NCBI GenBank assembly: GCA_035575515.1
Contig: DATLXU010000067.1
Location: 6,519 to 70,518, forward strand
Source of the DNA: Blastocatellia bacterium
Lineage (GTDB): Bacteria > Acidobacteriota > Blastocatellia > UBA7656
Direction: 5' to 3'
Length of the DNA stretch: 64,000 bases
The notes beneath the pieces were generated by a model. The model ran no database searches, was not told the origin of the DNA, and saw nothing but the letters and a program-made list of their open reading frames with translations. Positions 17,169 through 47,086 of the stretch are shown here, piece after piece. The position numbers were made by a program, and so were the translations under genes. The first letter of the stretch is position 1. Every line of letters begins with the position of its first letter.

Positions 17169-17172
17169 ATTA

Positions 17173-23706: not shown

Positions 23707-23790
23707 GCAGTTGCCAGTTGTCAGTGCTCAGTTGTCAGTATCCAATGCACATTTCAACTCACAACCGAGCACTGGCAACCGACAACTGCT
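23706..23790. repeat. heptamer-built palindrome / bidirectional terminator (GCAGTTG CCAGTTG TCAGTGC TCAGTTG ... GAGCACT GGCAACC GACAACT)
   Basis: Seen directly between convergent genes. Confidence 0.55.
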
Positions 23791-24453
23791 TTATTCAAAC
23801 TGGCTCTTGAAATCTAGAAACTGTTGGCGAAGCTCGGCCAGTTCCGCGCGTAGAGTTTCGATCGCGCTTTCAAGCTTGGCAATCCGCTCGTTTTCGGCGC
23901 GCACTTCGATCATCGCAGGCTCAAGTCGCGGCTCTACGGCGCGCTCTTCAATCTGCGGCTCGCCTGAAAGCAGGTGCGCGTAACGCGATTCCTTCGTGCC
24001 TGGAAGTCGCGGCAGCTTCGCTACAAGCGGCGGCTCTGCTGCCGCAAGCGAGGCCAGCACTGCTTCTACTTCTTCGATGCTTGTGAATTCGTAAAGCCGA
24101 GTGGTGCGCCCTCGAATCTCGCCTGCCGTCTGCGGCCCGCGCAACATCAACACGCACATCACCGCCACCTCTTGTTCAGCCAGCTTGAATTGCTCAGCAA
24201 AGCGATGCTCGTATTTCGGCACGCGGCTGCCCGGCCCCGTGACCATCCATATGAGACCCCTTTCACGAAGACTATCGAGCGCGCGGGCTATGATCTTTTC
24301 GTCGAAGGAAACCACAGGCTCGCGGTTCGTCGTCTGATTGCACGCATTGACGAGCGCATTGAGAGTGAGCGGGTAGTATTCGGGCGTGGTTATCTGCTTT
24401 TCGATGAGTGAACCGATGACGCGAACTTCCACAGGGTTGAGCGTGACGTTCAC
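23791..24453 (-). CDS. yceH: YceH (DUF480/UPF0502) family protein
   Basis: The N-terminus LNPVEVRVIGSLIEKQITTPEYYPLTLNALVNACNQTTNREPV is almost a consensus YceH sequence. Confidence 0.8.
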   Translation of the reverse strand: MNVTLNPVEVRVIGSLIEKQITTPEYYPLTLNALVNACNQTTNREPVVSFDEKIIARALDSLRERGLIWMVTGPGSRVPKYEHRFAEQFKLAEQEVAVMCVLMLRGPQTAGEIRGRTTRLYEFTSIEEVEAVLASLAAAEPPLVAKLPRLPGTKESRYAHLLSGEPQIEERAVEPRLEPAMIEVRAENERIAKLESAIETLRAELAELRQQFLDFKSQFE

Positions 24454-25552: not shown

Positions 25553-26050
25553 ATGGCTAAAGAGAAGATTGATTATCCGATAACTCCAGCCGTGCGCGCG
25601 CTCAGAGAAAAGAAGATCGAGTTCGCGCCGCACCTCTACGCGTACAAAGAGCACGGCGGCACTCGGCATTCAGCCGCAGAGCTTGGCGTGGATGAACATT
25701 CAGTCATCAAGACTCTCGTGATGGAAACCGATTCGCGCGAGCCGCTTATTATATTGATGCACGGCGACCGCGAAGTTTCCACGAAAGAGCTTGCGCGAGC
25801 ACTCGGAGTAAAGACGGTCTTGCCCTGCTCGCCCGACACGGCACAAAAGCACACTGGCTACATGGTCGGCGGGACAAGCCCGTTCGGCACGCGCAAGCGT
25901 TTGCCGGTTTATGCCGAGAAGACGATTTTCGATCTGCCGCGCATCTTCATCAACGGCGGCAAGCGCGGCTTTCTCGTCGAGATTGATCCGAAAGATTTGC
26001 GAGCCGCGCTCGATGTGAAAGAAGTCGACGTGGCGATAGCGCAGCATTGA
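25553..26050 (+). CDS. ybaK: Cys-tRNA(Pro)/Cys-tRNA(Cys) deacylase YbaK
   Basis: MAKEKIDYPITPAVRALREKKIEF...HTGYMVGGTSPFGTRKRLPVY...INGGKRG is collinear with YbaK. Confidence 0.85.
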   Translation: MAKEKIDYPITPAVRALREKKIEFAPHLYAYKEHGGTRHSAAELGVDEHSVIKTLVMETDSREPLIILMHGDREVSTKELARALGVKTVLPCSPDTAQKHTGYMVGGTSPFGTRKRLPVYAEKTIFDLPRIFINGGKRGFLVEIDPKDLRAALDVKEVDVAIAQH

Positions 26051-26084
26051 AGCTAAGGATTGATTGTGGGAAGAGACTGATTGC

Positions 26085-26717
26085 ATGGCTGAACTGAACA
26101 GAGATTATTCGCAACCGCCTTTGCGCAAGAGCGACGTTGACCCGAACCCGCTTGTGGAATTTCAGAAATGGTTCAATCGAGCAATTGAGGTCGTGCCGAT
26201 TTTGCCGAACGCGATGACGCTTGCGACGGCGACGCGCGACGGCGTGCCTTCGGCGCGAACTGTGCTGCTTAAAGATTACGATGAGCGTGGATTCGTTTTT
26301 TACACGAACTACGACAGCCAAAAAGCGAAGGAGTTGGAAGAAAATCCGGTGGCGACGCTGCTTTTCTACTGGCCTGAGCTTGAGCGTCAGGTGCGCATCA
26401 CTGGCCGCGCGACGCGAACTACGCGCGAAGAATCGGAAGAGTATTTTCGCACGCGCCCGCGAGACAGCCAGCTCAGCGCGTGGGCGTCGCGACAAAGCGA
26501 AGTCATTGCGAGCCGCGAGGTTTTGCAGAATAAGATGGCCGAGTTAGTCGCTGAGTACGAAGGCCGCGAAGTTCCGCTGCCGCCGAACTGGGGCGGCTAC
26601 CGCGTCGCGGCTGAGGTGATAGAATTCTGGCAGGGCCGACCGAGCCGCCTGCACGACCGATTGCGCTACACACGACAGAGCGACGGCGAGTGGCTGATTG
26701 AGAGATTGTCGCCTTGA
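26085..26717 (+). CDS. pdxH: pyridoxamine 5'-phosphate oxidase
   Basis: YTNYDSQKAKELEENP, FYWPELERQVRITG, RPRDSQLSAWAS and EFWQGRPSRLHDR are all PdxH hallmarks. Confidence 0.9.
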   Translation: MAELNRDYSQPPLRKSDVDPNPLVEFQKWFNRAIEVVPILPNAMTLATATRDGVPSARTVLLKDYDERGFVFYTNYDSQKAKELEENPVATLLFYWPELERQVRITGRATRTTREESEEYFRTRPRDSQLSAWASRQSEVIASREVLQNKMAELVAEYEGREVPLPPNWGGYRVAAEVIEFWQGRPSRLHDRLRYTRQSDGEWLIERLSP

Positions 26718-26952
26718 GTGAATAGCTCATCGTCTCCTGCCAGAATCCGAGGTCGTTATTGGATTGACAAGAAGCGGCTTGAAGTTATCCACTTTCATTT
26801 CGCACACGCGGTCGGCCCGCGCAGATTGACAACTTTTTCAAGCGTATGCTAAAAGCAATCGAGGCAAGGGACTTTGGTTCTTTTTCGGCAGCATTTCTTT
26901 TCTCAGAGCAGTCACAGTCGTCAATATAAGTCTCAGCGCATCGTGAGCGTGT

Positions 26953-28056
26953 TTGCGCACGGCATATTCGAGTCACGCAATGGCAGACGAAACTAAAGAT
27001 AAATCAACGAGCGAGACGGAGAACAAATCGCGCGATGTTGAGCAAACGGAATCAGCTCAACCAAACAAATCATCTAGCGATGCGGATAAAGCTCAAGAAA
27101 TCGCATCTCGCGCCGATTCAAATGAAACAATAGGGGCCGATGTGCCTGAAAAAGCGAAGCCGCTTCCGCCCGAAGCCGGTTCGGTTTCGCCCGCCGATGA
27201 GATTGAGTCGAAAGCCAAAGTCTCGCTGCCTCCTGAAGAAAAGCTCAAGACCGAAGCGAAGGACGAAGCCGCGCTGCCCGGCGTTGAAAAGCCTTCGCTG
27301 ACTCCGACAGTCGAGGGCGCGTCGGAAAAGGGCGAGCCTGCGGCCCCTGAGAAAGTTGAGCCAAGTGCGCCCGAAGCGGGCGCGCCAGCGCCGAAACCAA
27401 CGCCGCCGCGAGCGCCCGCTGCCGGAAAGCCCGCTCCCCCGAAAGCGGCTCCCGCTGCCGGTCACAAGCCAGCCGCCCCGCCGCGCAAAGGGCCGGAGAT
27501 TACGACCGAAATCACAGGCGACCCGTTTATTGATAGAATCAAGCAGCGCTTCGGTGACGCTATCACGGAAGCAGTCGCGACGCTCGGCCAGCAGATTCTT
27601 CGCGTGAAGAAAGACGCTTACCTTGAGCTTTGCCGCTACTTGCGCGATGACGAAGAGTTCCCTTTCGATATGTGCACGGACCTGACGGCGATTCACTGGC
27701 CCGAGCGCGCGGGACAGGAGTTCGATGTTGTCTTGTTGCTTTATTCAGTGGCGAAGAATCGTCGCCTGCGCGTCAAGGTCGGGCTTGCAGACGGCGATGC
27801 GTGTCCGAGCGTCACTTCAATATGGGAAGGCGCGAACTGGATGGAGCGCGAAGTCTTCGACATGTTCGGCGTTAAATTCGACGGCCATCCTGACCTGCGG
27901 CGGATACTGCTGCCGGAGGACTGGCCCGGCCATCCGCTTCGCAAAGAGTATCCGATTGAGTATCGCGACAACGAATGGACAGACAAGCACCTTGAGTACC
28001 GCGAGATTGATTACGACACGAGCTTGATTGATGTGAAGTACGCGGAACGGAGATAG
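26953..28056 (+). CDS. nuoC: NADH-quinone oxidoreductase subunit C with ~170-aa Pro/Ala/Glu/Lys-rich N-terminal extension
   Basis: The C-terminal 190 aa are canonical NuoC (ELCRYLRDDEEFPFDMCTDLTAIHWP...EREVFDMFGVKFDGHPDLRRILLPEDW). The N-terminus is low complexity. Confidence 0.85.
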   Translation: MRTAYSSHAMADETKDKSTSETENKSRDVEQTESAQPNKSSSDADKAQEIASRADSNETIGADVPEKAKPLPPEAGSVSPADEIESKAKVSLPPEEKLKTEAKDEAALPGVEKPSLTPTVEGASEKGEPAAPEKVEPSAPEAGAPAPKPTPPRAPAAGKPAPPKAAPAAGHKPAAPPRKGPEITTEITGDPFIDRIKQRFGDAITEAVATLGQQILRVKKDAYLELCRYLRDDEEFPFDMCTDLTAIHWPERAGQEFDVVLLLYSVAKNRRLRVKVGLADGDACPSVTSIWEGANWMEREVFDMFGVKFDGHPDLRRILLPEDWPGHPLRKEYPIEYRDNEWTDKHLEYREIDYDTSLIDVKYAERR

Positions 28057-28057
28057 T

Positions 28058-28146
28058 GGTCAGAAGTCAGAGGTCAGGGAACAGGGATAGAAAGCAGAAG
28101 AATCTGTTTTACCCTGACCCCTGACCCCCTGACCCCCGACCCCTGT
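28058..28146. repeat. heptamer-built palindrome (GGTCAGA AGTCAGA GGTCAGG GAACAGG ... CCCTGAC CCCTGAC CCCCTGA CCCCCGA CCCCTGT)
   Basis: Seen directly in the nuoC-nuoD spacer. Confidence 0.6.
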
Positions 28147-29287
28147 GAGGAATATGCAAGAGCAGGGATTGACGAAGCCGCAAGAAACCCTCTTCGATGC
28201 CGAAGAGATGATTCTCAACATGGGTCCGCAGCATCCTTCTACTCACGGAGTGCTGCGCGTTATCCTCAAGCTCGACGGCGAAACCGTCCGTGACCTCGAC
28301 TGCGACATCGGTTATCTCCATCGCGGCGTTGAGAAGATCGCTGAAAACGACACCTATGCAATGATAACGCCTTACTGGGACCGACTAGATTACGTCGCCG
28401 CAGTCTCGAACGATCTCTGCTACGTCGAAGCCGTCGAAAAACTCCTTCAGGTCGAAGTTCCCAAGCGAGCCGAATACCTGCGCGTCATCCTCACAGAGCT
28501 TCAGCGCATTGCGTCGCACCTGCTCTGGTTGGGCACGCACGCGATGGACATAGGCGCGGTCACGGTTCTGCTTTATTGCTTCCGCGAGCGCGAAGAGATT
28601 CTGAAAATCTTCGAGGACTTCATAGGTGCGCGGCTCACGGCTCATGCGTTCCGTATCGGAGGACTCTGGTGGGACGCTTACCCTGAGTTTGAAACTCGCG
28701 TGCGCGAATTCTTGAAGATACTTCCGGGCCGCATAGAGGAGTACGAAACGCTTCTGAACGCGAACCGCATCTGGCTGCAACGCACGGTCGGCATCGGCAT
28801 CATCACCGCAGAAGACGCAATCAACATGAGCCTTACGGGACCGTGCCTGCGCGGGTCGGGCGTGAAGTATGACGTGCGCAAAGCGACGCCTTATTCGGCT
28901 TATTCCGATTTTAATTTCGAGATACCGATAGGCGAAAACGGCGACACGTATGACCGCTACCTTGTGCGCATGGAAGAGATTAAACAGTCGGCAATCATAA
29001 TCGAGCAGGCGCTGGACGGATTGCCGGAAGGGCCTGTGATGGCGAAGGTGCCGAAGATAATCAAGCCGCCCGTAGGCGAAGTCTATCATTCGATAGAAGG
29101 GCCGAAGGGCGAGCTTGGCGCTTATCTTGTGAGCGACGGCACGGGCAAGCCTTATCGAATGCGCATCCGTCCGCCGTCATACATCAACCTGCAATCGCTC
29201 AAGAAGATGTCTGTCGGCCATCTCGTTGCAGACGTTGTCGCAATCATCGGCACGATTGACATCGTGCTGGGCGAAGTTGATAGATAG
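28145..29287 (+). CDS. nuoD: NADH-quinone oxidoreductase subunit D
   Basis: [17 protein letters not shown]...LHRGVEK and the C-terminal NuoD signature. Confidence 0.9.
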
Positions 29288-29309
29288 CTGAACGCTTTGA
29301 ATTAACGCC

Positions 29310-30665
29310 ATGCAATCTTTTCTAGCAATCCTGATGATAGTCGCGCCCGACTGGGTTCGGCGCTTAACGGGCGAACGACAGCCCAACGTCTTCTGGTCAG
29401 AATACATCGTCTGGCCGATCATTCAAATCATCATCGTGCTGTTCATCGTGCTGACGATTGTCGCCTACCTCGTTTACATGGAGCGCAAAGTTTCGGCCTT
29501 CATGCAGGCGCGGCTCGGTCCCATGCGCGTCGGCCCGTGGGGACTCTTGCAGCCTGCAGCCGACGGATTGAAGCTGCTTCTCAAAGAAGACATCATCCCG
29601 CTGAAAGCCGACCGCGCTGTCTTTATGATCGCACCCATCATCTGCGTGGCTGCCGCGCTCGTCGTTCTGTCAGTTATCCCGTGGGGCGCGGCGTGGGCGA
29701 CGATTGCAAACATCAACATCGGATTATTATTCATCCTCGCCGTCTCGTCGGTAGGCGTGCTGGGACTCGTGCTCGCGGGTTGGGCGTCAAACTCGAAATA
29801 CTCTTTGCTCGGCGCGCTGCGCTCGTCGGCACAGATGGTGAGCTACGAAGTCGGCATGGGACTTTCGATAATCGGCGCGCTGATGTTCGCGCGAACGCTT
29901 TCGATGTCAGGCATAGTTGACGCGCAGCAGGCCGACGGCATCTGGTACGTCTTCTTTCAACCGCTCGGCTTCTTGATTTACCTTACGAGCGCGCTCGGTG
30001 AAACCAACCGCGCGCCGTTCGATCTGCCCGAAGCCGAATCCGAACTCGTCGCCGGTTATCACACTGAATACTCAGGCTTTCGCTGGGCGCTGTTTTTCAT
30101 GGCTGAGTATTCGGCGATGATAGTGACTGCGGCGGTCGCGGTGACGCTCTTTTTAGGCGGCTGGCATTTTCCGGGACTCGATTGGATAAGAACAAACGCG
30201 GGCGAAACGCTCTTTGTGCTTCTGAGCGTCTTCGTTTTCGCCGCGAAGGTCTTCGCTCTCATTTATGCTTACATGTGGTTCCGCTGGACGTGGCCGCGCT
30301 ATCGCTACGACCAGTTGATGGAGCTTGGCTGGAAATGGATGATACCGGCGGGGCTTGCTAATATAGTATTAACGGGCGTCTGGTACGTCCTGGCTCTGCC
30401 GAAATCGCAGGGCGGCTTGCTCGACCTGATGCATCAGGAGAGCGGGCGGCTCGTGCCGAACAAGTATGCGGGCATCATCTACTTCATCGTCACCGGCGCG
30501 CTTGTTACCGTCCCGATAGTCTGGGGAGTGCTTGCGGCGATCAATCGCCGGTCGCGCGACTTCAACCTGCACGAGCAGCGCCAGCTTCAAATTCAACTCC
30601 GCCGCGAGCGATTGGAAAAGATGCTTCAGGAGCGCGCAGAGCCGCAGACGGCACAGCAGAGTTAG
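29310..30665 (+). CDS. nuoH: NADH-quinone oxidoreductase subunit H with ~110-aa C-terminal extension
   Basis: YMERKVSAFMQARLGP, GLLQPAADGLKLLLKE, and FFMAEY motifs. Confidence 0.9.
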   Translation: MQSFLAILMIVAPDWVRRLTGERQPNVFWSEYIVWPIIQIIIVLFIVLTIVAYLVYMERKVSAFMQARLGPMRVGPWGLLQPAADGLKLLLKEDIIPLKADRAVFMIAPIICVAAALVVLSVIPWGAAWATIANINIGLLFILAVSSVGVLGLVLAGWASNSKYSLLGALRSSAQMVSYEVGMGLSIIGALMFARTLSMSGIVDAQQADGIWYVFFQPLGFLIYLTSALGETNRAPFDLPEAESELVAGYHTEYSGFRWALFFMAEYSAMIVTAAVAVTLFLGGWHFPGLDWIRTNAGETLFVLLSVFVFAAKVFALIYAYMWFRWTWPRYRYDQLMELGWKWMIPAGLANIVLTGVWYVLALPKSQGGLLDLMHQESGRLVPNKYAGIIYFIVTGALVTVPIVWGVLAAINRRSRDFNLHEQRQLQIQLRRERLEKMLQERAEPQTAQQS

Positions 30666-30671
30666 CAATTA

Positions 30672-30710
30672 TTCGATTTGAGATTTAAGATTTAAAATCT
30701 CAAGACAGGT
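30672..30710. repeat. short heptamer palindrome (GATTTGA GATTTAA GATTTAA AATCTCA)
   Basis: Seen directly in the nuoH-nuoI spacer. Confidence 0.45.
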
Positions 30711-30715
30711 GATTT

Positions 30716-31261
30716 ATGCCAGCAGTAACAACGCCAGCAAAGAAGCGAACCATCGGGCAGATAATCAGGCGACTCTTGTTGCTCGATCTGTTCAAAGGTC
30801 TCGCCGTAACGTTCAAGTATAACGCTCGCGCATTTGTTGAGCCGCGCGACGGCGGTAATCCCAATCAGGCGATTTACACCGAGCAGTACCCGCTTGAGCC
30901 TGCGCGAGTCTCGGAAAGATTTCGCGGCGCGCCGCGACTCAATCTCGACCCTGAAACGGGCGGCACGCTCTGCATCGCGTGCGACCTGTGCGCGCTGGCC
31001 TGCCCGGTTGATTGCATCGAAGTCGGCTCGATCCGCCGCGAAGTGCGCGACGGCGACAAGGTGAACAAGAAGAAAGTGCTGACGACTTTCACCTTCGACA
31101 CATCGCGCTGCATGTTCTGCAATCTCTGCTCGGAGGCGTGTCCGACAGATTGCCTTGAGCTTACTCAGAGTTTTGAATTAGCGGTCTATCACCGCTCAGG
31201 TTTTCGCTGGGATCGCGAGATGCTCGAAAAGGGCATCAATTACGTTCGCTATACACGCTAG
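30716..31261 (+). CDS. nuoI: NADH-quinone oxidoreductase subunit I (2x[4Fe-4S] ferredoxin)
   Basis: CIACDLCALACP and CMFCNLCSEACP motifs. Confidence 0.9.
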   Translation: MPAVTTPAKKRTIGQIIRRLLLLDLFKGLAVTFKYNARAFVEPRDGGNPNQAIYTEQYPLEPARVSERFRGAPRLNLDPETGGTLCIACDLCALACPVDCIEVGSIRREVRDGDKVNKKKVLTTFTFDTSRCMFCNLCSEACPTDCLELTQSFELAVYHRSGFRWDREMLEKGINYVRYTR

Positions 31262-31378
31262 GAGCTAGGGGCCAGGGGGCTAGGGGCTGGGAGTCAGTGG
31301 ATTTGAGATTTGAGATTTCAAATTTGAAATTCATCCGACCCTGACCCCCGGCCCCCAACCCCTGACCCCGTGCCGGAG
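31262..31378. repeat. heptamer-built palindrome (GCTAGGG GCCAGGG GGCTAGG GGCTGGG AGTCAGT ... CCTGACC CCCGGCC CCCAACC CCTGACC CC)
   Basis: Seen directly in the nuoI-nuoJ spacer. The loop contains GATTTGA GATTTGA GATTTCA heptamers. Confidence 0.6.
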
Positions 31379-31382
31379 GCAC

Positions 31383-31979
31383 ATGCAACTACACGGGTGG
31401 GAAGCAATCCTGTTTTACGCGCTAGCCATCATGACTTTGTTCATGGCGGTCTTCGTCGTGACGGCGCGCGTTGCGGTTCACTCGGCGCTCTTTTTGATCT
31501 CGACGCTTGTCAACGTCGCGCTGCTGTTCATATTGCTGCGCGCCGAGTTCGTTGCGGGCGTTCAGATACTCGTTTACGTCGGCGGCGTGATGGTGCTGTT
31601 TTTATTTGTCATCATGCTCGTTCAGACTCGCGCCGAAGAGGAAGCGCGCGTGCGGCTCTACACGGGTCAGACGTGGCCTGCGGTGATAATCGCGCTGCTG
31701 CTTGCCGTCGCGTTTTATTTTGCGATGAACCCTGCGCAATCGGCTTTTCGCCCGGCTGAAGTCGCAGCAGCAACCGCCACTCAAGCGCCGCCTGAAACGG
31801 GCGAGCGCGTTCAAGCGGGCGCGGGCCAGAACATCTCCAGAGACACGCAGACCGTCGGCCACGCGCTCTACACCGACGCGGCTCTGCCTTTTGAAGTCGC
31901 GTCCTTGCTGCTGCTCGTTGCAATGATAGGCGCGGTGCTGTTGGCGCGCGGAACGAAGCAAGAGAAATATTATGAGTAA
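31383..31979 (+). CDS. nuoJ: NADH-quinone oxidoreductase subunit J
   Basis: TM pattern and the [20 protein letters not shown] motif. Confidence 0.85.
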
Positions 31980-31996
31980 TAACTGAGGGGGACGTT

Positions 31997-32440
31997 GTGA
32001 ATAGCTTACTGATGGGCGCATTAGCCTACGCCGCTCCGCTGCTCTTGCAGGCCCAGCAGCAACAATCGGCCCTGAAACGATTCGAGCCTACGCTCATCAA
32101 CTTTTTGATGTTGAGCTTTCTGCTTTTCGTCGTCGGCGTAGCGGGCGTGCTGTCGCGACGCAACATCATCATCATCTTCATGTCAATCGAGCTGATACTG
32201 AACGCGGTCAATCTGAACCTGATTGCGTTCTCGCGCTACTTGCAACTCAACGAGCAGTCGCTCAACGCTCAGTTTCAAGCTTCAGGCGTCACGGTGAACC
32301 CGCTGGCCGGGCCTGTCTTTACTGTCTTCATAATCGTCGTCGCAGCAGCAGAAGCAGCCGTAGGTCTTGGCATCGTCATAGCAATGTTCCGCAATCGCGA
32401 AACGGTCGCGATTGACGAGATTGATATGTTGAAGTGGTAA
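31997..32440 (+). CDS. nuoK: NADH-quinone oxidoreductase subunit K (extended)
   Basis: The [22 protein letters not shown] motif is NuoK. Extra N-terminal and internal segments make it 147 aa against ~100 aa. Confidence 0.8.
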
Positions 32441-32528
32441 TCATTTGTCATTGGTCATTTGTCCCTTGTCCTTTGTTTATTCTTTAAGGACAAGCGAGCA
32501 AATGACCAATGACAAGTGACCAATGACA
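32441..32528. repeat. heptamer-built palindrome (TCATTTG TCATTGG TCATTTG TCCCTTG TCCTTTG ... ACAAGCG AGCAAAT GACCAAT GACAAGT GACCAAT GACAAAT)
   Basis: Seen directly in the nuoK-nuoL spacer. The right arm overlaps the annotated nuoL ATG at 32516. Confidence 0.6.
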
Positions 32529-34951
32529 AATTTATGTTAAAACTCGTCTGGCTCATTCCGGTCTTTCCGCTTCTCGGCTTTCTAGTCAATTTTATTCTCG
32601 GTCGCAGCCTGAGGCTGTCGGAGCGCGCAGTTTCAATCATCGGATGCGGCGTGATACTCGCCTCGCTCCTGCTCACGCTCGGAGCCTTTTACGATTATGC
32701 TGCGAACTACGCGCCTGCGAACAACCACAAGCCATACATCTCAACTCAGTTCACGTGGCTGCCCGGCGGCAAAGCGCACAAGACGCTTGTGCCGGAGACA
32801 GCCGAGCATGCACAGGCTGGCGAACGCGGCGAGTCAGACCATAACAAATCAGCAGGCTCGCGGCTCTCGGATTTCAACATCACATGGAGTTATCAAATAG
32901 ACCCGCTCTCGCTCGTGATGATGTTCATTGTCACGTTCGTGGGCTTCTGGATTCACGTCTTCGCCACCGGCTACATGCACGGCGACACGGGCTTCTATCG
33001 CTTCTTCGCTTACCTCAACCTGTTCATGTTCATGATGCTGTTGCTCGTGATGGCGTCGAACTTCATGGTCATGTTCATCGGGTGGGAGGGCGTGGGCCTG
33101 TGCTCGTACCTGCTCATCGGTTATTACTTCGACAGGCAGGAAGCTGGCGACGCATCAAAGAAAGCATTTGTCGTCAACCGTATTGGCGACGCCGGAATGG
33201 TCCTGGCCATATCGGGCATCTTCGCAGCGTTCGGAACACTTGAATTCAGCGAAGTCGCGCAGGCCGTCAGTTCCATTGGAGTCGAACAACTCTGGCAGTT
33301 CGGATTGATGTCGTGGCTTGCGTTAGGACTCTTCATCGGCGCGACGGGCAAGAGCGCGCAGATACCGCTCTACATCTGGCTGCCCGACGCGATGGCCGGC
33401 CCGACTCCCGTTTCGGCTCTGATTCACGCGGCGACGATGGTGACGGCGGGCGTCTTTATGGTCGTGCGGACGAACTTCATCTTTCAACGCTCGGTCACGA
33501 TGATGATGATAGTTGCGCTCGTCGGACTTCTCACCGCATTCATCGCTGCGACCATCGGCATCACACAGACGGACATCAAGAAGGTTCTCGCTTATTCGAC
33601 CGTCTCGCAACTTGGCTATATGTTTTTGGCTTGCGGCGTGGGCGCGTTCGTCGCCGGAATCTTTCACGTATTCACTCACGCATTCTTCAAAGCCCTTCTC
33701 TTTTTAGGCTCAGGCTCGGTCATTCACGCGATGCACCATGAACAGGAGATGCCGCGAATGGGCGGCTTGGCGAAATATCTGCCGACGACTTATAAGGCGA
33801 TGATGATGGGATGGCTTGCCATCTGCGGCATCATCCCGTTTGCGGGCTTCTGGTCGAAAGACGAGATACTGTGGAAGACCTTTGACACTCAAATCTTCGG
33901 TGGCGGAAAGCTGCTGTGGTTTTTCGGATTCGTCACAGCCGGAATGACTGCGTTTTACATGACTCGATTGATGGGGCTGACCTTCTGGGGCGAAGAGCGA
34001 TTTCGCAAAGTTCACGCCGGAGGCGAAGCCGACGAAGCGCACGCAGCGGCGCACGATAAAGAACTCAAGCCGCACGATGCAATCACCGCTTCGGCAGGTG
34101 ATCGGCCTCATCACGCGCCCGGCGAGCACGTAGGCGCGCACGACGCAACTGACCGACTGAATGCTCACGGCATCGCTCACGCGCATTACGAGCCGCACGA
34201 ATCGCCGCGCAACATGACATTGCCGTTGGTCGTGCTCGCGTTCTTTTCAGTAGTCGCGGGACTCGTAGGCATACCGGCGGCGCTATCGGGCGGCGCGAAC
34301 ATAAATCTGTTCGAGCGATGGCTTGAGCCTGTCGTCCAAGAAGTGCACAGCGAACCGGCAACAGCGAACGAAGCCTCAGAACCGGCTCCGGGAGCCGGTT
34401 CTGAGGCAGCGGCAGAAGCTGGCGGCGCGCACGGCGAAGGCTCGCATCCGGTTGATCCGATGGAGTACGTCCTGATGCTCGCTTCGCTCGGCATCGCAGC
34501 GGGCGGCATCTATCTCGGACGATTGTTCTACGTGAAGCGGCCTGACCTGCCGCGCATCTGGGCCGAAAAGCTTCGCCCGCTCTACACGCTCAGTTTCAAC
34601 AAATGGTATTGGGATTGGCTGCTCGACGTGAAGGGAGTCGAGGCGGCTAAAGCCGTCAACAACGCGCTGTGGTCGGTTGACGCTGAAGTGGTTGACGGCG
34701 GCGTGAACGGCGCGGGATGGTTCGCGCGATTCTGGGCGAAGGTCACAGGTTGGTGGGACAAGTGGGTTATTGATCTTGCGGTGAACGCGACCGGATGGAT
34801 AACGCGCGCAGGCTCGATCATCCTGCGCAGTTTTCAGACGGGCTTCTGGCAGAACTACGCGCTGCTGTTCGCCATCGGGCTGTTTATTCTTCTGGCTGTG
34901 TATGTGTACTCGGCTGTGCCGATTACGCTCAAAGGACTTTTCGGGAAATAG
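32516..34951 (+). CDS. nuoL: NADH-quinone oxidoreductase subunit L with large His-rich insertions
   Basis: Antiporter-like NuoL core (WLPDAMAGPTPVSALIHAATMVTAGV). 811 aa against ~620-650 aa in typical NuoL. The true start may be MLKLVWLIPVFPLLGF at 32534. Confidence 0.85.
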   Translation: MTNDKFMLKLVWLIPVFPLLGFLVNFILGRSLRLSERAVSIIGCGVILASLLLTLGAFYDYAANYAPANNHKPYISTQFTWLPGGKAHKTLVPETAEHAQAGERGESDHNKSAGSRLSDFNITWSYQIDPLSLVMMFIVTFVGFWIHVFATGYMHGDTGFYRFFAYLNLFMFMMLLLVMASNFMVMFIGWEGVGLCSYLLIGYYFDRQEAGDASKKAFVVNRIGDAGMVLAISGIFAAFGTLEFSEVAQAVSSIGVEQLWQFGLMSWLALGLFIGATGKSAQIPLYIWLPDAMAGPTPVSALIHAATMVTAGVFMVVRTNFIFQRSVTMMMIVALVGLLTAFIAATIGITQTDIKKVLAYSTVSQLGYMFLACGVGAFVAGIFHVFTHAFFKALLFLGSGSVIHAMHHEQEMPRMGGLAKYLPTTYKAMMMGWLAICGIIPFAGFWSKDEILWKTFDTQIFGGGKLLWFFGFVTAGMTAFYMTRLMGLTFWGEERFRKVHAGGEADEAHAAAHDKELKPHDAITASAGDRPHHAPGEHVGAHDATDRLNAHGIAHAHYEPHESPRNMTLPLVVLAFFSVVAGLVGIPAALSGGANINLFERWLEPVVQEVHSEPATANEASEPAPGAGSEAAAEAGGAHGEGSHPVDPMEYVLMLASLGIAAGGIYLGRLFYVKRPDLPRIWAEKLRPLYTLSFNKWYWDWLLDVKGVEAAKAVNNALWSVDAEVVDGGVNGAGWFARFWAKVTGWWDKWVIDLAVNATGWITRAGSIILRSFQTGFWQNYALLFAIGLFILLAVYVYSAVPITLKGLFGK

Positions 34952-35109
34952 ATTGTAGGGGGCGGGTCTCGACCCGCTGCGCGGGTTCCCCGGCCCGAAT
35001 CGCGCATTAATCAAATTGGCCGATGGCAAATCTATCTCATTGCCTTCGGCAATCCGGGCAGGGACAAGCCCCGCCCCTACAGGTCGGTTAATCAAAGGAG
35101 ACTCTGGCT

Positions 35110-36960
35110 ATGCCTGGTCGCATGGAGATTTTTGGAATCGGCATTCTGTCGTGGGTGACGTGGTTACCGGCGGCTGGCGGGTTGATGCTGCTCTTTTTCA
35201 ATCGCGCTAAAAACGACCGCATCCGCTGGTTTGCAAACCTCTGGATCGTGCTCTGCTTCTTGGTTTCAATCCCGCTCGTCACAGGACTTGGCGCGGGGCG
35301 TCCCGGTTATGACCGCGCTTACGGCGGATTGCAATTCATCGAAGACCACGAATGGATACCGCTAATCGGCGCGCGTTATCAATTAGGCATTGATGGTCTC
35401 GCGCTCGTGCTCTTGATGCTGACGACGCTTTTGGGAGTCGTGTCGGTCATCTGCTCGTGGGACTACATCCGCGAGAAGGGGCGCGAGAAAGAGTATTACA
35501 TCATGCTGCTGCTGTTGCAGACGGGCATGATCGGCGCGTTCGTGTCGGCTGATCTCTTTCTGTTCTTCATCTTCTGGGAAGTAATGCTCGTGCCGATGTA
35601 TTTTTTAATCGGCATCTGGGGCGGCAAGAACCGGCTCTATTCCGCAATCAAGTTTTTCCTTTACACCCTTGTCGGCTCGGTCGTGATGCTGCTTGCGGTA
35701 TTGAAGCTCTACTTCATTTTTCCCGAAGTCGTGCAGAAGCGCGCGCCTGATGTTTTGGCAACAGCGGAACAGATCACGGCGAGCAGCGTGACCGATCCTT
35801 CGCGAGCAGGCCAGCGCAACGAGCAGATGTTCAAGATGATTGACGATGCGATGAAGCGCGCCGAAGGCATTGACCCCGCTGACCCCGAAGGCAAGCGCGC
35901 GCTGCCATCAAGTTATGTCCGCAGCTCGTTCAACATCCCTGCGCTCACAGCTATCGGTCCGCACATAAAAACCGTATTCGGCCTGAGCGTAGTCATCTGG
36001 CTGTTCATAGGCTTTTCGCTTTCGTTCGCAATAAAAGTTCCGATGTTTCCATTTCACACGTGGCTGCCGGATGCGCACTACGACGCGCCGACGGCTGGCT
36101 CTGTGATTCTTGCGGGCGTGCTGCTCAAGATGGGAACGTATGGCTTCATGCGATTTTCGCTTCCGATGTTTCCCGATGCGGCGACTCATCCGCGAGTCCG
36201 TCAGGTGATGATAGTGCTTGCGATTATCGGCATCATCTACGGCGCGCTCGTGGCGATGGCGCAAAAGGATGTTAAGAAGCTCGTCGCTTACTCGTCGGTC
36301 TCGCATCTTGGATTTGTGATGCTTGGCTTGTTCGCCCTTAACCCGAACGGCATCAACGGCGCGGTGATGCAGATGATTAATCACGGCATCTCAACGGGCG
36401 CGCTCTTTATGCTTGCAGGCATCCTCTACGAGCGGCGGCATACGTACGATATTGCCGAGTTCGGCGGGCTTGCGCACGTGATGCCGATCTACTCGACGAT
36501 ATTTTTAATCGTCACGCTGTCGTCTTTAGGCTTGCCGTTGATGAATAATTTCATCGGCGAGTTTCTGACGATTCGAGGCGCATTTGAAGCGAACCCCTAC
36601 TGGGGCGGCTTCGCCGTCATCGGGATCATTCTCGGCGCGGCCTATATGCTGTGGCTGTATCAACGAGTCTTCTTCGGGCAGGTGACGAAGGAAGAGAATC
36701 GCGGGTTGCGCGATTTGAACGCGCGCGAGGCATGGCAGTTCGCGCCGCTGATTTTCCTGATCTTCTGGATCGGCGTTTACCCGAAGCCCGTGCTTTCCTA
36801 CATCAACCCGCAGACTGAGGTAGTCGTCGCGCAGGTGCAGCCTGATTACTTCAAGAACGCGCCCGCTGCCCAGCGGCCTCAGATGGCGAAAGAAGAGCCT
36901 GCGGCGAACGAAGCCGCTCCGGCTCACGTTGAAATCGAAGAGCCGGAAGAGAGCAAGTAA
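35110..36960 (+). CDS. nuoM: NADH-quinone oxidoreductase subunit M with ~80-aa insertion
   Basis: NuoM core (WLPDAHYDAPTAGSVILAGVLLKMG). Inserted hydrophilic segment around 35700-35950. Confidence 0.85.
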   Translation: MPGRMEIFGIGILSWVTWLPAAGGLMLLFFNRAKNDRIRWFANLWIVLCFLVSIPLVTGLGAGRPGYDRAYGGLQFIEDHEWIPLIGARYQLGIDGLALVLLMLTTLLGVVSVICSWDYIREKGREKEYYIMLLLLQTGMIGAFVSADLFLFFIFWEVMLVPMYFLIGIWGGKNRLYSAIKFFLYTLVGSVVMLLAVLKLYFIFPEVVQKRAPDVLATAEQITASSVTDPSRAGQRNEQMFKMIDDAMKRAEGIDPADPEGKRALPSSYVRSSFNIPALTAIGPHIKTVFGLSVVIWLFIGFSLSFAIKVPMFPFHTWLPDAHYDAPTAGSVILAGVLLKMGTYGFMRFSLPMFPDAATHPRVRQVMIVLAIIGIIYGALVAMAQKDVKKLVAYSSVSHLGFVMLGLFALNPNGINGAVMQMINHGISTGALFMLAGILYERRHTYDIAEFGGLAHVMPIYSTIFLIVTLSSLGLPLMNNFIGEFLTIRGAFEANPYWGGFAVIGIILGAAYMLWLYQRVFFGQVTKEENRGLRDLNAREAWQFAPLIFLIFWIGVYPKPVLSYINPQTEVVVAQVQPDYFKNAPAAQRPQMAKEEPAANEAAPAHVEIEEPEESK

Positions 36961-37058
36961 TTTGACGTGGCGCCGCCGTCTCGGCGGCAGTTGCGTGAGC
37001 GAGACGCTCACTAGACAGCCAGCTAGAAGCTGGCGCTACCATTGGCACGACAAAAAGT

Positions 37059-38711
37059 ATGCTGCTACTACAAGCACCACCTGATTTTCTGAATCTCGCG
37101 CGACAGGCTGCGCAATACATAATGCCTGAAGCTATCCTGACGCTATTCGCCTGCGCCGCGCTCGTGTTGGATGTCATGCTGCCGCGCAATCAGAAGCGTA
37201 TAGTCGCGTGGGTGAGCCTCGCGGGCGTTGGCTTTGCCCTTGCTTCGCTTGGCATTCTTTATTTCAACTTCGTCAGCCGCAGCGGGTCGAGCACGGCTTT
37301 CTACAACATGATCGTGCTCGATAATTATGCTGTCGTCTTCAAGCTGATCTTCCTCATCGGCGCGGCGCTTTCGATATTGCTCTCGATTCGCTACCTCGAA
37401 GAAGAAGGCGAGCAGCGCGGCGAATACTACGGGCTGATACTGTTTTCCGTAGTCGGCATGATGTTTATGGCATCAGGCGTTGACCTGCTGATGTTGTTCA
37501 TCTCGCTCGAACTGATGGCCATCTCGATTTACATACTGGTCGGCTATCTTCGACGCGACAGAAAATCAAACGAAGCCTCGATGAAGTATTTTCTGCTCGG
37601 CGCGTTCTCATCTGGTGTGTTGCTGTACGGCATCTCGCTCGTCTATGGAATTACGGGCACGACCAACCTTGAACAGATTGCGAACGCGCTGCCGAAAGTG
37701 ATCTCAGGACTCAACGCGCTCAACCCTCAAGCCGCTGCGCCCGATATGCGGTACATGCTTATGATAGGCATGACGCTTATGGCCGCAGGGATGTTCTTCA
37801 AGGTTGCAGCGGTGCCGTTTCACATGTGGGCGCCCGACGCTTACGAAGGCGCACCTACTTCCACTACAGCTTTCATGTCGGTCGCGGTCAAGGCCGCGAG
37901 CTTTGCGATGTTCGGACGAATATTTTTGTATGGACTGCCCGGATTAAGAAGCGGCATCACGGGCACGCCATCGCTTCCGGGATGGGCCACGCTGTTGGGA
38001 GTGATTGCAGCAATAACGATTGTCTGGGGGAATCTCGCCGCGATCACTCAACAAAACACCAAGCGGCTGCTCGCTTATTCATCAATCTCACACGCGGGCT
38101 ACACGCTGCTCGGTTTGATTGCCGGAAACGAAACCGGCTACACAGGGTTCATCGTCTATCTGCTCATCTACACGATAATGAATCTCGGCGTGTTCGGCTG
38201 CATCATCGCGCTGCGCCGTCGAGGCATCATCGGCGACCGCATGGAAGATTTGAATGGCTTGATGCGCAAAGCGCCGTGGCTAACGGTGATGATGACGATT
38301 TTCCTGCTCTCGCTCGGCGGCATACCTCCGACAGCAGGCTTCATCGGAAAGTTCTATCTGTTTGCTGGTCTGATTCAAACCGGCAACGTCTGGATGGTGC
38401 GGCTTGCGGTGCTTGCAGTCTTGATGAGCGCGGTGTCGCTTTATTATTACATCCGATTCATCCGCGCGATGTACATCGAACCTGAATCGGAGCCGCAGCC
38501 GGTCAGGCTCGCCGCCCCGCTTTACGTCGCGCTCGGAGTTGCCACAGTCCTTGTGCTCTACATAGGCATATTTCCGCAGCGCGCGATTGATTTGACGAAG
38601 CGGGCGGGAGCGGTCCTCGTCGAACAACAGAACAAAGCAGAGCAGAACAAGACAAGGCAAAGCGGGCCTGGCGTACCGCAGGATGTTTCCGAGATGACTC
38701 CCTCGCCGTAA
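37059..38711 (+). CDS. nuoN: NADH-quinone oxidoreductase subunit N
   Basis: NuoN core (FHMWAPDAYEGAPTSTTAFMSVAVKAASFA). Confidence 0.85.
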   Translation: MLLLQAPPDFLNLARQAAQYIMPEAILTLFACAALVLDVMLPRNQKRIVAWVSLAGVGFALASLGILYFNFVSRSGSSTAFYNMIVLDNYAVVFKLIFLIGAALSILLSIRYLEEEGEQRGEYYGLILFSVVGMMFMASGVDLLMLFISLELMAISIYILVGYLRRDRKSNEASMKYFLLGAFSSGVLLYGISLVYGITGTTNLEQIANALPKVISGLNALNPQAAAPDMRYMLMIGMTLMAAGMFFKVAAVPFHMWAPDAYEGAPTSTTAFMSVAVKAASFAMFGRIFLYGLPGLRSGITGTPSLPGWATLLGVIAAITIVWGNLAAITQQNTKRLLAYSSISHAGYTLLGLIAGNETGYTGFIVYLLIYTIMNLGVFGCIIALRRRGIIGDRMEDLNGLMRKAPWLTVMMTIFLLSLGGIPPTAGFIGKFYLFAGLIQTGNVWMVRLAVLAVLMSAVSLYYYIRFIRAMYIEPESEPQPVRLAAPLYVALGVATVLVLYIGIFPQRAIDLTKRAGAVLVEQQNKAEQNKTRQSGPGVPQDVSEMTPSP

Positions 38712-38714
38712 TTT

Positions 38715-38951
38715 ATGCCTTCCGACGATGACAAGCAGAATGGCGGAATAAGCTGGCGGCAGGCGCTGACGACCGTAGGGCTTGCGCTTGCCATCCCCTG
38801 GATGATTGGCGTGCCTGCAGTCGTCGGCTGGTACGTTGATAAGAAGTACGCGACGTGGCCGCTGTGGTTCATCGTCGGCCTTTCGATAGGACTCATCGGA
38901 ACTGCGCTCGACATCTATCGCCTGCTGAAACGATTCGGACAATTCAAATGA
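38715..38951 (+). CDS. AtpZ/AtpI-like small two-TM membrane protein
   Basis: ALAIPWMIGVPAVVGWYVDKKYATWPLWFIVGLSIGLIGTALDIYRL follows the AtpZ (ATPase_gene1) pattern ...G.G.ylD.....P.f.....g...g....yr. The ATG lies 4 nt after the nuoN stop. Confidence 0.5.
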   Translation: MPSDDDKQNGGISWRQALTTVGLALAIPWMIGVPAVVGWYVDKKYATWPLWFIVGLSIGLIGTALDIYRLLKRFGQFK

Positions 38952-39028
38952 CAGACGGCTCCGCCTGTCCTCTCGCCCGATTATCAGGTTATATTTCTCG
39001 TCTGACTAAACCACACAAGAGGGATTGA

Positions 39029-39796
39029 ATGATTGACTTTGCCATTCGCGTGGCTCAAGACGCGGGCCGATTGCTCCGCGACCGGCTCGGCACAACTATT
39101 GACATAGGCCACAAAGGCGCAATCAATATCGTCACCGACGTTGACCTGGCGAGCGAGCGGTTGATTCGCGAAGCGATTGCGACGCACTACCCGCGCCACG
39201 AAGTGCTGGCCGAAGAGGGCGGCCTTGCCGAAAGCACGTCGGATTATCGCTGGATTGTTGACCCGTTGGACGGAACAACAAACTACGCGCACGGCTATCC
39301 GATCTTCTGCGTTTCGATTGCGCTCGAATACAAAGGCGAGACGATTCTCGGCGTCGTTTATGATCCTATGCGCGAAGAGGTCTTCACAGCCGAACGCGGC
39401 AGCGGCGCGTGGTTGAACAATCGGCGCATTCGAGTGTCTCAGACTGTTGACTTGATGCAAAGTTTGCTTTCGACTGGCTTCCCTTACGACATCAAAACGT
39501 CGAGCCTGACGAACCTCGATCACTGGGCTAACTTCGCGATGAACGCGCAGGCGCTTCGACGCGACGGCGCGGCGGCGATTGACCTGTGCTACGTTGCATG
39601 CGGCAGGTTTGACGGATTCTGGGAATTGAATCTCAGCCCTTGGGACACAGCAGCAGGCGCGTTGATCGCAGAAGAAGCCGGTGGCCGCATCACCGATTTT
39701 GATGGCGGCAAGTTTTCAAACTACAAGCCGCAAATCGTGGCGAGCAACGGTCTCATTCATGATCGCATGATTGAAGTGCTGGCTATGGCGAAGTAG
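39029..39796 (+). CDS. inositol monophosphatase family protein (SuhB-like)
   Basis: EEGG, WIVDPLDGTTNY and WDTAAG motifs. Confidence 0.85.
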   Translation: MIDFAIRVAQDAGRLLRDRLGTTIDIGHKGAINIVTDVDLASERLIREAIATHYPRHEVLAEEGGLAESTSDYRWIVDPLDGTTNYAHGYPIFCVSIALEYKGETILGVVYDPMREEVFTAERGSGAWLNNRRIRVSQTVDLMQSLLSTGFPYDIKTSSLTNLDHWANFAMNAQALRRDGAAAIDLCYVACGRFDGFWELNLSPWDTAAGALIAEEAGGRITDFDGGKFSNYKPQIVASNGLIHDRMIEVLAMAK

Positions 39797-39799
39797 GTA

Positions 39800-39875
39800 C
39801 CATGTCCTGGGTGCCGGGGATCAATTCCTCATGACCTCTCCCTGACACCCGGCATCTGACACCTGATGTCGAGAG
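39800..39875. repeat. heptamer-built imperfect palindrome (CATGTCC TGGGTGC CGGGGAT ... TGACACC CGGCATC TGACACC TGATGTC)
   Basis: Seen directly in the spacer before thrB. Confidence 0.45.
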
Positions 39876-39878
39876 CGG

Positions 39879-40802
39879 ATGCAAAAAGCTGAAATCACAA
39901 TTCCCGCGTCGACTTCAAATCTGGGCGCGAGCTTTGACGCTTGCGGTCTTGCGCTCGCGCTCTACCTGCGTGTGACGGTTGAAGAGAGCGCGAGCGAGTT
40001 TGAGATAATTCCAACGGGTGAAGGCTCGGAGCGTGTCGAACGCGGCGAATCGAATCTGATTGCGCGGGTTGCTCGCGCGGTGGCCGATGATCGCAAGAGA
40101 AAAATAAGCGGCGCGCGGCTCGCGGTTCACAGCGAGATACCGCTTGCTCGCGGGCTTGGCTCAAGCAGCGCGGCTATCATCGCGGGCATTTCGGTCTATG
40201 AAACCCTTTCAGGCGAGCGATTGAGCGAAGATGATATTTTCAATTACGCGCTTCGGTTTGAAGAGCACGGCGACAACCTCGCGCCCAGCCTTCTTGGCGG
40301 ACTTGTAGCCGCGTGCGTAGTCGAGCGCAATGCCACCCGCTCGCTTGTAACCGTCAAGCGCGCGTGGCCCGAAGAAGTGAAGATAGTTCTCATGGTGCCC
40401 GACTTCGAGATGAACACAGCGGAGATGCGCCGCGCGCTTCCCCGCGAAGTTTCGATGAAGGATGCTGTTTTCAACGTGCAGCGCGCGGCGTTATTACAGG
40501 CTCTGATTTCAGAGCGGCGTTTTGAATTGCTCAATGAAGCGTTGCGCGATAGACTTCATCAGCCGTATCGCGTGCCGCGCGCACAGGGACTCAGCGATGT
40601 GCTTGCGATGAATGACGAAGTCGAGGAGTATCGCGGCTTGCTCGGCGTTGCCGTGAGCGGCGCGGGTTCAACTATGGTCGCGTTTGCAACGGAGAATTTT
40701 TCGGCCATAGCCGATGAGATGATTGACCGGCTCGCCCGTCACGGCGTCGGCTCGCGCGCGCTTCAGGTCGCCGTCGACAACACGGGCCGCATAATCAAAT
40801 GA
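39879..40802 (+). CDS. thrB: homoserine kinase
   Basis: GHMP-kinase motifs [19 protein letters not shown] and [13 protein letters not shown]. Confidence 0.85.
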
Positions 40803-40812
40803 AGGTGAAGAA

Positions 40813-41808: not shown

Positions 41809-41841
41809 AGAGAACGTCGCCGGGATGAGCGTGGTTGCGCT

Positions 41842-42594: not shown

Positions 42595-42604
42595 CAACTC
42601 GCGT

Positions 42605-43402: not shown

Positions 43403-43405
43403 GGC

Positions 43406-44317: not shown

Positions 44318-44331
44318 CGAATTGATAAACC

Positions 44332-45156: not shown

Positions 45157-45166
45157 GGTTATCCTC

Positions 45167-47062: not shown

Positions 47063-47086
47063 GGAACAATAGCGCGGAGGTGGACG

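Follow-up and report, generated by a model that had tools for sequence, protein, structure and literature searches.

The DNA analysed here is a 64,000-nucleotide stretch of contig DATLXU010000067.1 from a Blastocatellia bacterium (hereafter the window), in which nuoC, D, H, I, J, K, L, M and N, identified by Pfam, form a co-directional cluster of complex I genes. The eight spacers from nuoC to nuoN measure 97, 22, 50, 121, 17, 93, 158 and 98 nt, the starts of nuoD (ATG 28154) and nuoL (ATG 32534) having been refined from the gene calls of same-species contigs together with conservation. An earlier reading of the sequence (the original prediction) had proposed that almost every one of these spacers carries a long structured element, pointing either to segment-wise processing or stabilisation of the mRNA, by which subunit stoichiometry would be set, or to repeated invasion by the element. 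The minimum free energy (MFE) of each spacer was compared with 200 dinucleotide shuffles. The results showed that six of the eight are structured, with z-scores of −6.2 for C/D (the spacer between nuoC and nuoD; the others are named likewise), −2.8 for H/I, −6.1 for I/J, −11.2 for K/L, −3.0 for L/M and −4.3 for M/N; D/H and J/K are short and unstructured, which narrows the predicted "almost every". In C/D, H/I, I/J and K/L the structure is a palindrome of tandem heptamers, the subject of this report. These elements are not specific to nuo; they are local copies of an intergenic repeat class that is found throughout Blastocatellia.

Tandem Repeats Finder (TRF) revealed period-7 arrays in each of the four spacers (28059-28145, 30675-30695, 31257-31369 and 32441-32531), and inverted arms were found in all of them, in agreement with the original prediction, whose palindrome lengths were also about right. 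The arms are imperfect tandem heptamers of the types GGTCAGG/CCCTGAC, GATTTGA, GCTAGGG and TCATTTG/TCATTGG (Table 1). The C/D palindrome starts 2 nt past the nuoC stop codon and ends directly before the Shine-Dalgarno sequence (SD) of nuoD (GAGGA); its 5′ arm is composed of GGTCAGA/AGTCAGA/GGTCAGG and its 3′ arm of 4.7 copies of CCCTGAC, a small hairpin lies at the centre, and the antisense strand folds better than the sense strand (−54.2 vs −44.6 kcal/mol). The H/I element is the weakest of the four (−11.5 kcal/mol). At I/J, outer arms of GCTAGGG/GCCAGGG and CCCTGAC/CCCCGGC form a G-rich palindrome with a second palindrome of GATTTGA units nested at its centre (approximately 31299-31336), and a small hairpin following the element (31370-31382) presents the nuoJ SD. 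The K/L palindrome, in which TCATTTG/TCATTGG units are mirrored as CAAATGA/CCAATGA, begins at the first base past the nuoK stop codon and stops 2 nt short of the nuoL ATG, with no SD visible.

Analysis of the whole window showed period-7 arrays in 11 of its 41 intergenic regions of at least 20 nt, nearly all paired as palindromes and lying between co-directional, convergent and divergent gene pairs alike (examples outside nuo are 16538-16671, 17080-17172, 23699-23797 and 52038-52143). This density of 11 elements in 64 kb extrapolates to approximately one per 6 kb, and the window holds at least four unit families, including GGGGTCA, GATTTGA, TCATTTG and CAGTTGC. Under a stringent threshold, 67 period-7 sites were counted in 604 kb of Blastocatellia loci (1.11 per 10 kb), compared with 1-7 sites each for periods 5, 6, 8 and 9 in the same loci (0.02-0.12 per 10 kb, 9-67 times rarer), whereas 127 kb of sequence from Acidobacteriota outside Blastocatellia and from further phyla contained none. 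As a coding baseline, 0.44% of 100-nt coding windows reach a 12-of-14 cut-off that is slightly looser than the stringent one. Across the sample, at least 67 distinct canonical heptamer units occur, several per genome. Three further observations were made in the window. A palindrome with 27-nt arms, 96% complementary and built on a 9-nt unit (CGCCAAGAA), lies between two co-directional genes at 57987-58061. A direct CCCTGTC/CCCTGCT heptamer array at 7292-7332 falls in a greedy-called open reading frame (ORF; 6999-8210, minus strand), which is either a mis-called gene or a case of an intragenic array. Two co-directional runs at 39879-46240, one from a GHMP kinase to VIT1 and the other comprising methyltransferase, hydrolase, short-chain dehydrogenase/reductase and formamidase genes, have repeat-free spacers of 3-33 nt, so tight packing does occur in this genome.

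To compare orthologous clusters, approximately 110 nuo clusters of relatives were collected from 31 species-level genomes and 79 metagenome contigs (where two counts are given, they follow this order), the K/L and L/M spacers being delimited from the MLKLVWLIP motif. The gene order nuoCDHIJKLMN is kept in all Blastocatellia relatives, and the NuoD of the window, which places the stretch in Blastocatellia, has its closest species-level match at 93%. Heptamer-periodic spacers were found at K/L in 22/28 relatives (79%), at J/K in 18/29 and 33/62 (53-62%), at I/J in 14/30 and 37/65, at D/H in 14/31 and 13/33 (39-45%), at M/N in 9/22, at C/D in 3/28 and 13/25, at H/I in only 2/31 and 2/50 (4-6%), and at L/M in none of 23. 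Seven of the eight junctions, all but L/M, thus carry heptamer palindromes in some relatives, and the window lacks the common D/H and J/K elements while having the rare H/I one. Heptamer elements are the usual condition of Blastocatellia nuo clusters, with the occupied junctions varying by species. The premise of the original prediction that nuo genes are normally tightly packed proved sound for the outgroups in the sample, the measurable junctions of Terriglobia and the other Acidobacteriota there having 0-18 nt. A second family of long near-perfect palindromes, which look like repetitive extragenic palindromic sequences (REPs) or transposable elements of the miniature inverted-repeat type (MITEs), was also observed in nuo junctions of relatives, replacing the heptamer arrays there. 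Cores seen among its members include CCGCCTTTAGGCGG, CAGACTTTAGTCTG and CCAACTTCAGTTGG, and the termini that members share include GTTCAGAGTACCGCC; the palindromes lie at I/J and L/M of locus L002, D/H of L006, D/H, J/K and L/M of L015, H/I of L012, C/D of L028 and M/N of L018.

The history of the arrays was examined by comparing each spacer of the window, using blastn, with 39 loci from genomes and 79 from metagenomes. No orthologous spacer alignment was obtained among them except around the nuoM SD and over some of the nuoC upstream region; all other matches across species were short matches to repeat units. Although the spacers are unalignable, their arms stay near-perfect complements across species. 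Heptamer families differ by junction: J/K carries mainly AATCCGC, AATCGGC and AATGATG, D/H mainly ACGCATC, and the canonical K/L units across species are ACTCATC, AACTCTG and AAGTGAC. An identical canonical unit was found in 11.3% of pairs from the same junction of different genomes, vs 1.1% of pairs differing in both (10 times), and in 4.4% of pairs from different junctions of one genome. Ten same-population contigs, 99.93-99.98% identical, showed no indel and one single-nucleotide polymorphism in the spacers, so the arrays are not hypermutable on that time scale. The contrast of 11.3% with 1.1%, together with this invariance, therefore identifies the arrays as long-term residents evolving in place: each junction's array is inherited vertically, its arms evolve in concert, and some exchange takes place between neighbouring arrays of one genome. 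The exact NuoI protein is present in the metagenome-assembled genomes GCA_037024415.1, GCA_037024555.1 and GCA_037024435.1 and in related read assemblies; the metagenomes SRR24677609-13 hold this population as well. An exact-protein look-up and a metagenome scan for genomes of intermediate divergence returned only the 99.93-99.98% contigs and otherwise nothing closer than approximately 75-80% nucleotide identity; L121 and L123, which are similar over the NuoJ N-terminus, had been considered as close relatives and proved not to be close. Four of the ten same-species contigs (L045-L048) end in this region: three in or at the edge of the I/J palindrome (one at 31262, two at 31318) and the fourth at 31415, 33 nt inside nuoJ. 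The heptamer repeats break short-read assemblies.

The geometry of 178 elements was then summarised. The median distance from the stop codon to the stem is 1 nt, and that from the stem to the following start codon is 6 nt; the elements fill the neutral stretch that separates a stop codon from the ribosome-binding site after it. As a class they are found in intergenic regions of every kind. The SDs of nuoD, J, K and M fall outside the stems, those conserved in relatives being AGGAGA for nuoM and GGAGG for nuoK and nuoJ. No recognisable nuoL SD was present in any Blastocatellia relative examined (K/L spacers of L001-L034), and in relatives the long K/L hairpin usually stops 2-10 nt short of this gene's ATG. 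The 5′ arm has more G than C in 160 elements vs 12 and more T than A in 128 vs 41, a G/T-rich-first polarity of 92%; because a palindrome reads alike on both strands, this polarity is intrinsic and not an orientation relative to transcription. As one consequence, potential start codons and SD-like tetramers are four times fewer in the 3′ half of the spacer than in the 5′ half, which plausibly acts as a filter on the arrays. In 85 elements for which both strands were folded, the sense strand had the better MFE in 40 and the antisense strand in 36 (Wilcoxon p=0.84), with 244 G-U pairs in sense vs 220 in antisense. A selected mRNA hairpin would predict better sense folding and tolerance of G-U pairs, and the equality of the strands therefore reveals no sense-strand selection.

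On the basis of these results, we propose, with a probability of roughly 0.55, that the heptamer palindromes are a lineage-wide class of palindromic microsatellites that act at the DNA level and are tolerated between cistrons. Each element pairs two heptamer microsatellites that converge, so that reading either strand meets the G/T-rich arm first. Its arrays would grow and shrink through replication slippage of 7-nt units, its arms would be kept alike via intrastrand template switching or gene conversion inside the palindrome, and occasional copying would occur between neighbouring arrays within one genome. Selection would merely filter the survivors, leaving those that lack a U-tail and thus do not terminate, that keep the SD free, and whose 3′ arm is poor in start codons and SD-like motifs. 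The nuo cluster forms a single long co-directional unit, so that transcription includes the repeats, which must fold into stems of approximately 10-30 bp, the longest at I/J and K/L. Such stems probably slow 3′-to-5′ exonucleases and may serve as RNase III substrates, which would be side effects and not a device setting the stoichiometry of complex I. The part of the original prediction that assigned the hairpins a role in subunit stoichiometry is disfavoured because occupancy varies between species, the strands are symmetric, and complex I needs its subunits in a 1:1 ratio.

Several points weigh against the proposal of tolerated microsatellites. The near-perfect complementarity of the arms, maintained over approximately 15% protein divergence, is also expected from hairpin selection. 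The nuoL gene lacks an SD, and a hairpin lies a few nt before its ATG in 79% of relatives, which hints at a role in translation. Slippage and template switching are inferred mechanisms, and slippage alone does not predict the 92% G/T-first polarity. In addition, the elements are more frequent at nuo junctions than at the remaining same-strand junctions, both in the window (4/8 vs 5/35, p=0.046) and across the relatives (nuo 23%, other same-strand 9%, convergent 7%, divergent 4%), the latter comparison involving crude greedy longest-ORF calls outside nuo and related genomes that are phylogenetically non-independent. This enrichment could mean that selection favours the elements and does not merely tolerate them.

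These points lead to the most serious rival, which we regard as possible but clearly the less probable, namely that selection acts on the hairpins as RNA elements of the polycistronic nuo transcript. In one variant, the stop-to-start stem would shield upstream segments from 3′ exonucleases or create RNase III sites. In the other, the stem would loop out the spacer, so that a terminating ribosome melts the stem base and re-initiates on the next cistron; such translational coupling over a spacer of 80-120 nt would be most relevant to the SD-less nuoL. The approximately 3-fold enrichment at nuo junctions and the persistence of elements at K/L and J/K (53-79% of the relatives), whose arms stay complementary while the units diverge, keep this explanation, above all stop-to-start coupling at K/L, in contention. 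It also agrees with the placement of the stems from just after the stop to just before the start, with the SDs of nuoD, J, K and M lying outside them, and with the lack of U-tails, from which read-through is expected. At the sequence level, the stable stems lie between co-directional genes with no terminators or promoters between them, as would intercistronic stabiliser or processing hairpins of the kind known from the malEFG REPs and the puf operon. E. coli REPs offer a precedent in mRNA stabilisation and ribosome stalling: they stabilise upstream mRNA, as Newbury reportedly described in 1987, and those within approximately 15 nt of a stop codon stall ribosomes, as reportedly found by Liang, Rudd and Deutscher in 2015. 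Against selected RNA stand the absence of sense-strand bias in both stability and G-U pairs, and the presence of the elements in divergent and convergent intergenic regions. The occupied junctions also vary by species, the window itself being without the common J/K and D/H elements; an equimolar complex I leaves stoichiometric tuning no obvious target; and other Acidobacteriota cope with spacers of 0-18 nt.

A further explanation, which we consider unlikely in either of two versions taken jointly, is that the heptamer palindromes are the product or the substrate of a dedicated Blastocatellia system. In the first version, an enzyme would add or copy G/T-rich heptamers directionally, in a telomere-like manner, making both strands G/T-rich toward the centre of the palindrome; such an enzyme would account for the 92% polarity, which slippage alone does not. 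In the second, a lineage-wide translational device, the stem would zip each stop codon to the next start and so keep long membrane-protein operons translationally coupled without gene overlap, in which case the SD-less nuoL would depend on a stop-to-start stem.

The suggestion of repeated invasion in the original prediction survives only in part: the four palindromes do belong to a genome- and lineage-wide repeat class, but they are old residents, as judged from the sharing of units by junction and the lack of variation in the population. Recent repeated invasion by a mobile non-autonomous element that targets intergenic hairpins, whether of the MITE type, the REPIN type (paired REPs) or the type mobilised by REP-associated tyrosine transposases (RAYTs), is unlikely. 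Neighbouring junctions of one genome do share a unit above expectation (4.4% vs 1.1%), as in C/D and the outer I/J arms or H/I and the inner I/J palindrome of the window, and in K/L and M/N of L002, L005 and L020; nested palindromes (I/J of the window, K/L of L003) would also fit insertion. However, the copies have no conserved core or terminal sequence and only the short unit in common; their arms are inverted repeats, but their cores differ between copies and between species. No target-site duplications were evident by eye, no formal search for them having been made, the junction-specific unit families across species favour vertical persistence, and the population shows no presence/absence or length polymorphism. 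A Pfam scan of the nuo genes and ten downstream ORFs (38715-49249) returned no transposase; no search aimed at transposases was made, and a 64-kb window is too small to exclude one elsewhere in the genome.

The structured spacers at L/M and M/N are of a different nature: they hold small palindromes unrelated to the heptamer class, a REP-like GTAG...CTAC pair in the former and three 7-bp hairpins in the latter. At L/M, the outer stem TGTAGGGGGCGGG / CCCCGCCCCTACA encloses the small hairpins GCGGGTC/GACCCGC and ATTGCC-TTC-GGCAAT. The 13-bp outer inverted repeat that had been proposed is indeed 13 nt long (34954-34966 / 35069-35081), but only 85% complementary, and the supposed UUCG tetraloop does not hold, the hairpin having a 3-nt loop (35039-35053) in a region that the minimum-energy fold pairs differently. 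The conserved nuoM SD (AGGAGA) lies downstream of this element. Its closing stem TGTAGGGGCG...CGCCCCTACA recurs directly after the nuoL stop codon in the metagenome relatives L079 (~9583) and L084 (~9594), whose interiors differ; L106 also has a pair of this type. The GTAG...CTAC ends resemble those of the GTAG-tagged REPs recognised by RAYTs (PMC3733652), a likeness that speaks for invasion; the window contains only one such pair, and 1.29 Mb of loci contain a few. At M/N, the three short hairpins described earlier are present as three perfect 7-bp stems with 3-nt loops (36972-36988, 36995-37011 and 37018-37034), GCCGCCG-TCT-CGGCGGC, GTGAGCG-AGA-CGCTCAC and GCCAGCT-AGA-AGCTGGC. They are unrelated in sequence, and the M/N spacers of relatives hold heptamer palindromes instead (9/22).

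A role of the hairpins as terminators or attenuators within the operon, by which transcription would be graded over its length, is very improbable. Strong stems do occupy intercistronic positions, and hairpin clusters have been proposed to terminate without canonical U-tracts (PMC8355165). However, 25 terminator-like sites were predicted in 26500-40000 and none coincides with a spacer element; there are no U-tails, the 3′ arms and tails being C/A-rich, and a promoter scan gave no convincing internal promoter at the nuo spacers that would compensate. It would be deleterious to terminate within an operon that encodes an equimolar complex, and the elements also occur between divergent genes. A search of 26000-40000 against Rfam 15 at permissive E-values returned only generic miRNA-precursor hairpins, at no more than 44.9 bits vs gathering thresholds of at least 63. 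Chance or an assembly artefact can be practically dismissed: the contigs that end at or near the I/J element do show that the repeats trouble assemblers, but the sequence is identical in ten independent assemblies, folding z-scores go down to −11, the coding baseline is only 0.44%, and the pattern is replicated in approximately 110 other contigs.

Table 1. Genes and spacer elements of the nuo cluster (positions in the window)
Feature	Position	Strand or placement	Evidence and remarks
nuoC (30-kDa subunit)	26980..28056	+	Pfam PF00329, E 8.6e-47; called genes, same-species contigs
C/D heptamer palindrome	28058..28145		TRF, inverted repeat; MFE −44.6 kcal/mol, z −6.18
nuoD (49-kDa subunit)	28154..29287	+	Pfam PF00346, E 6.8e-102; start from same-species gene calls
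D/H spacer, 22 nt, unstructured	29288..29309		MFE 0
nuoH	29310..30665	+	Pfam PF00146, E 1.7e-123
H/I short palindrome, GATTTGA/GATTTAA units	core 30675..30704		TRF; MFE −11.5 kcal/mol, z −2.84
nuoI	30716..31261	+	Pfam Fer4 families; identical protein in 16 contigs
I/J composite palindrome	31264..31369		TRF rows 31257-31369; MFE −68.6, z −6.12
nuoJ	31383..31979	+	Pfam PF00499
nuoK	31997..32440	+	Pfam PF00420
K/L heptamer palindrome	32441..32531		Inverted repeat with 33-nt arms, 85% complementary; TRF; MFE −46.3, z −11.17
nuoL (805 aa)	32534..34951	+	Pfam PF00361/PF00662/PF01010
L/M structured spacer of a different kind, without heptamers	34954..35081		z −2.98
nuoM	35110..36960	+	Pfam PF00361
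M/N hairpin trio	36972..37034		23-nt exact spacing; z −4.26
nuoN	37059..38711	+	Pfam PF00361
AtpI-like ORF, 78 aa	38715-38951	3 nt after nuoN	PF09527

The heptamer elements mislead gene callers, as ORFs extend into the arms and starts are mis-set, and the calls of nuoD, nuoL, nuoC and nuoN are ambiguous. For nuoC, the longest ORF runs from TTG 26953 and gene callers choose 26980 or 27142, giving a protein of 304, 358 or 367 aa depending on the caller. NuoC has a low-complexity N-terminal extension of approximately 190 aa rich in Pro/Ala/Lys/Glu (26953-27520). The genes nuoA, B, E, F and G are not in the cluster, and pdxH lies upstream of it. Within nuoL, an inverted repeat with 40-nt arms, 73% complementary (34350-34430), codes for a low-complexity loop rich in Ala/Glu/Pro/Gly (EPATANEASEPAPGAGSEAAAEAGG). 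The AtpI-like ORF is kept after nuoN in most relatives, with 64-81% identity.

For the nuo operon the result is deflationary. The sequence feature is real and statistically solid, no evidence of a special regulatory architecture was obtained from it, and operon-specific regulation is an over-interpretation. Two oddities stand out, the 92% G/T-first polarity and the hairpin abutting the start of the SD-less nuoL. The Blastocatellia nuo cluster, with eight fixed junctions in over a hundred sampled genomes, is a natural comparative series that shows arrays persisting, changing their unit, nesting and being lost. With this series one can test if template switching or selection drives the co-evolution of the arms, what causes the G/T-first order, and whether a 30-bp stem 1 nt past a stop codon affects termination, coupling or mRNA decay.

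Among the long microsatellites of bacteria, heptamer repeats show the strongest over-representation, and to our knowledge no function has been established for them since the description of the short tandemly repeated repetitive sequences (STRRs) of cyanobacteria. Among extragenic palindromes, the REPs and bacterial interspersed mosaic elements of E. coli lie in polycistronic transcripts and act as barriers to 3′ exonucleases, which leads to differential segment stability, as in malEFG; the mRNA role suggested by the original prediction and the rival of selected RNA elements both resemble these effects. REPs are 20-40 bp long, conserved in sequence, present in hundreds of copies and linked to RAYTs (PMC3733652), whereas the heptamer palindromes measure 30-106 bp and have neither shared sequence beyond the unit nor a GTAG/CGTC tag. 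REPs thus resemble the heptamer elements in possible effect and not in membership.

Closer parallels are found among the heptamer repeats themselves. The cyanobacterial STRRs reportedly comprise the heptamers CCCCAGT, TTGGTCA and CAACAGT, in a description attributed to Mazel et al. in 1990. The K/L unit TCATTGG is a rotation of TTGGTCA and thus identical to STRR2, and GGGGTCA and CAGTTGT resemble STRR1 and STRR3; the identity of the K/L unit may be convergent. STRRs are like the Blastocatellia elements in having several intergenic heptamer units per genome, but they belong to a different phylum and are mostly described as direct arrays, not as palindromes. They are mentioned for Calothrix PCC 7601 (PMC4692102). 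TAACTGA direct repeats, for which a post-transcriptional role was proposed, occur in marine Beggiatoaceae, Cyanobacteria and Bacteroidetes (MacGregor 2015, PMC4679880). Like the elements described here, they form abundant intergenic heptamer arrays beside translation signals, whereas they are direct (one inverted in 170), of a single unit and of fixed orientation immediately upstream of start codons. In Fusarium mitochondria, palindromic microsatellite repeats have spread in intergenic DNA (PMC7218506); their microsatellite-like units form palindromes as in the window, in an organellar eukaryotic system.

The GGGAATC repeats of Xanthomonas occur as 70-75 convergent pairs per genome with the G-rich arm first on each strand and are capable of forming stem-loops or cruciforms (Rehm et al. 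2015, PMC4692102). Their preferred location is between aligned ORFs, within approximately 50 bp of the upstream stop codon; most are transcribed, and their positions are kept between species while length and sequence vary (PMC4692102). The same source describes GGGGA(C/T)T heptamers in Nostoc, with one array inside the pec operon (PMC4692102). The Blastocatellia elements are likewise tandem 7-nt intergenic units in convergent pairs near the upstream stop codon. Each Xanthomonas genome uses essentially a single unit, whereas Blastocatellia genomes have several, many of them not G-rich (TCATTTG, GATTTGA), so G-quadruplex formation is not the common denominator; as a general explanation it was ruled out, half of the units being A/T-rich. 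In further contrast to Xanthomonas, the Blastocatellia arrays are nearly all paired as palindromes, some of them nested, and their unit family is junction-specific. Our search of a literature library found no paper linking Blastocatellia or Acidobacteria with heptamer repeats. The heptamer palindromes of the nuo spacers are thus a known kind of repeat in a new lineage, where it takes a multi-unit form.

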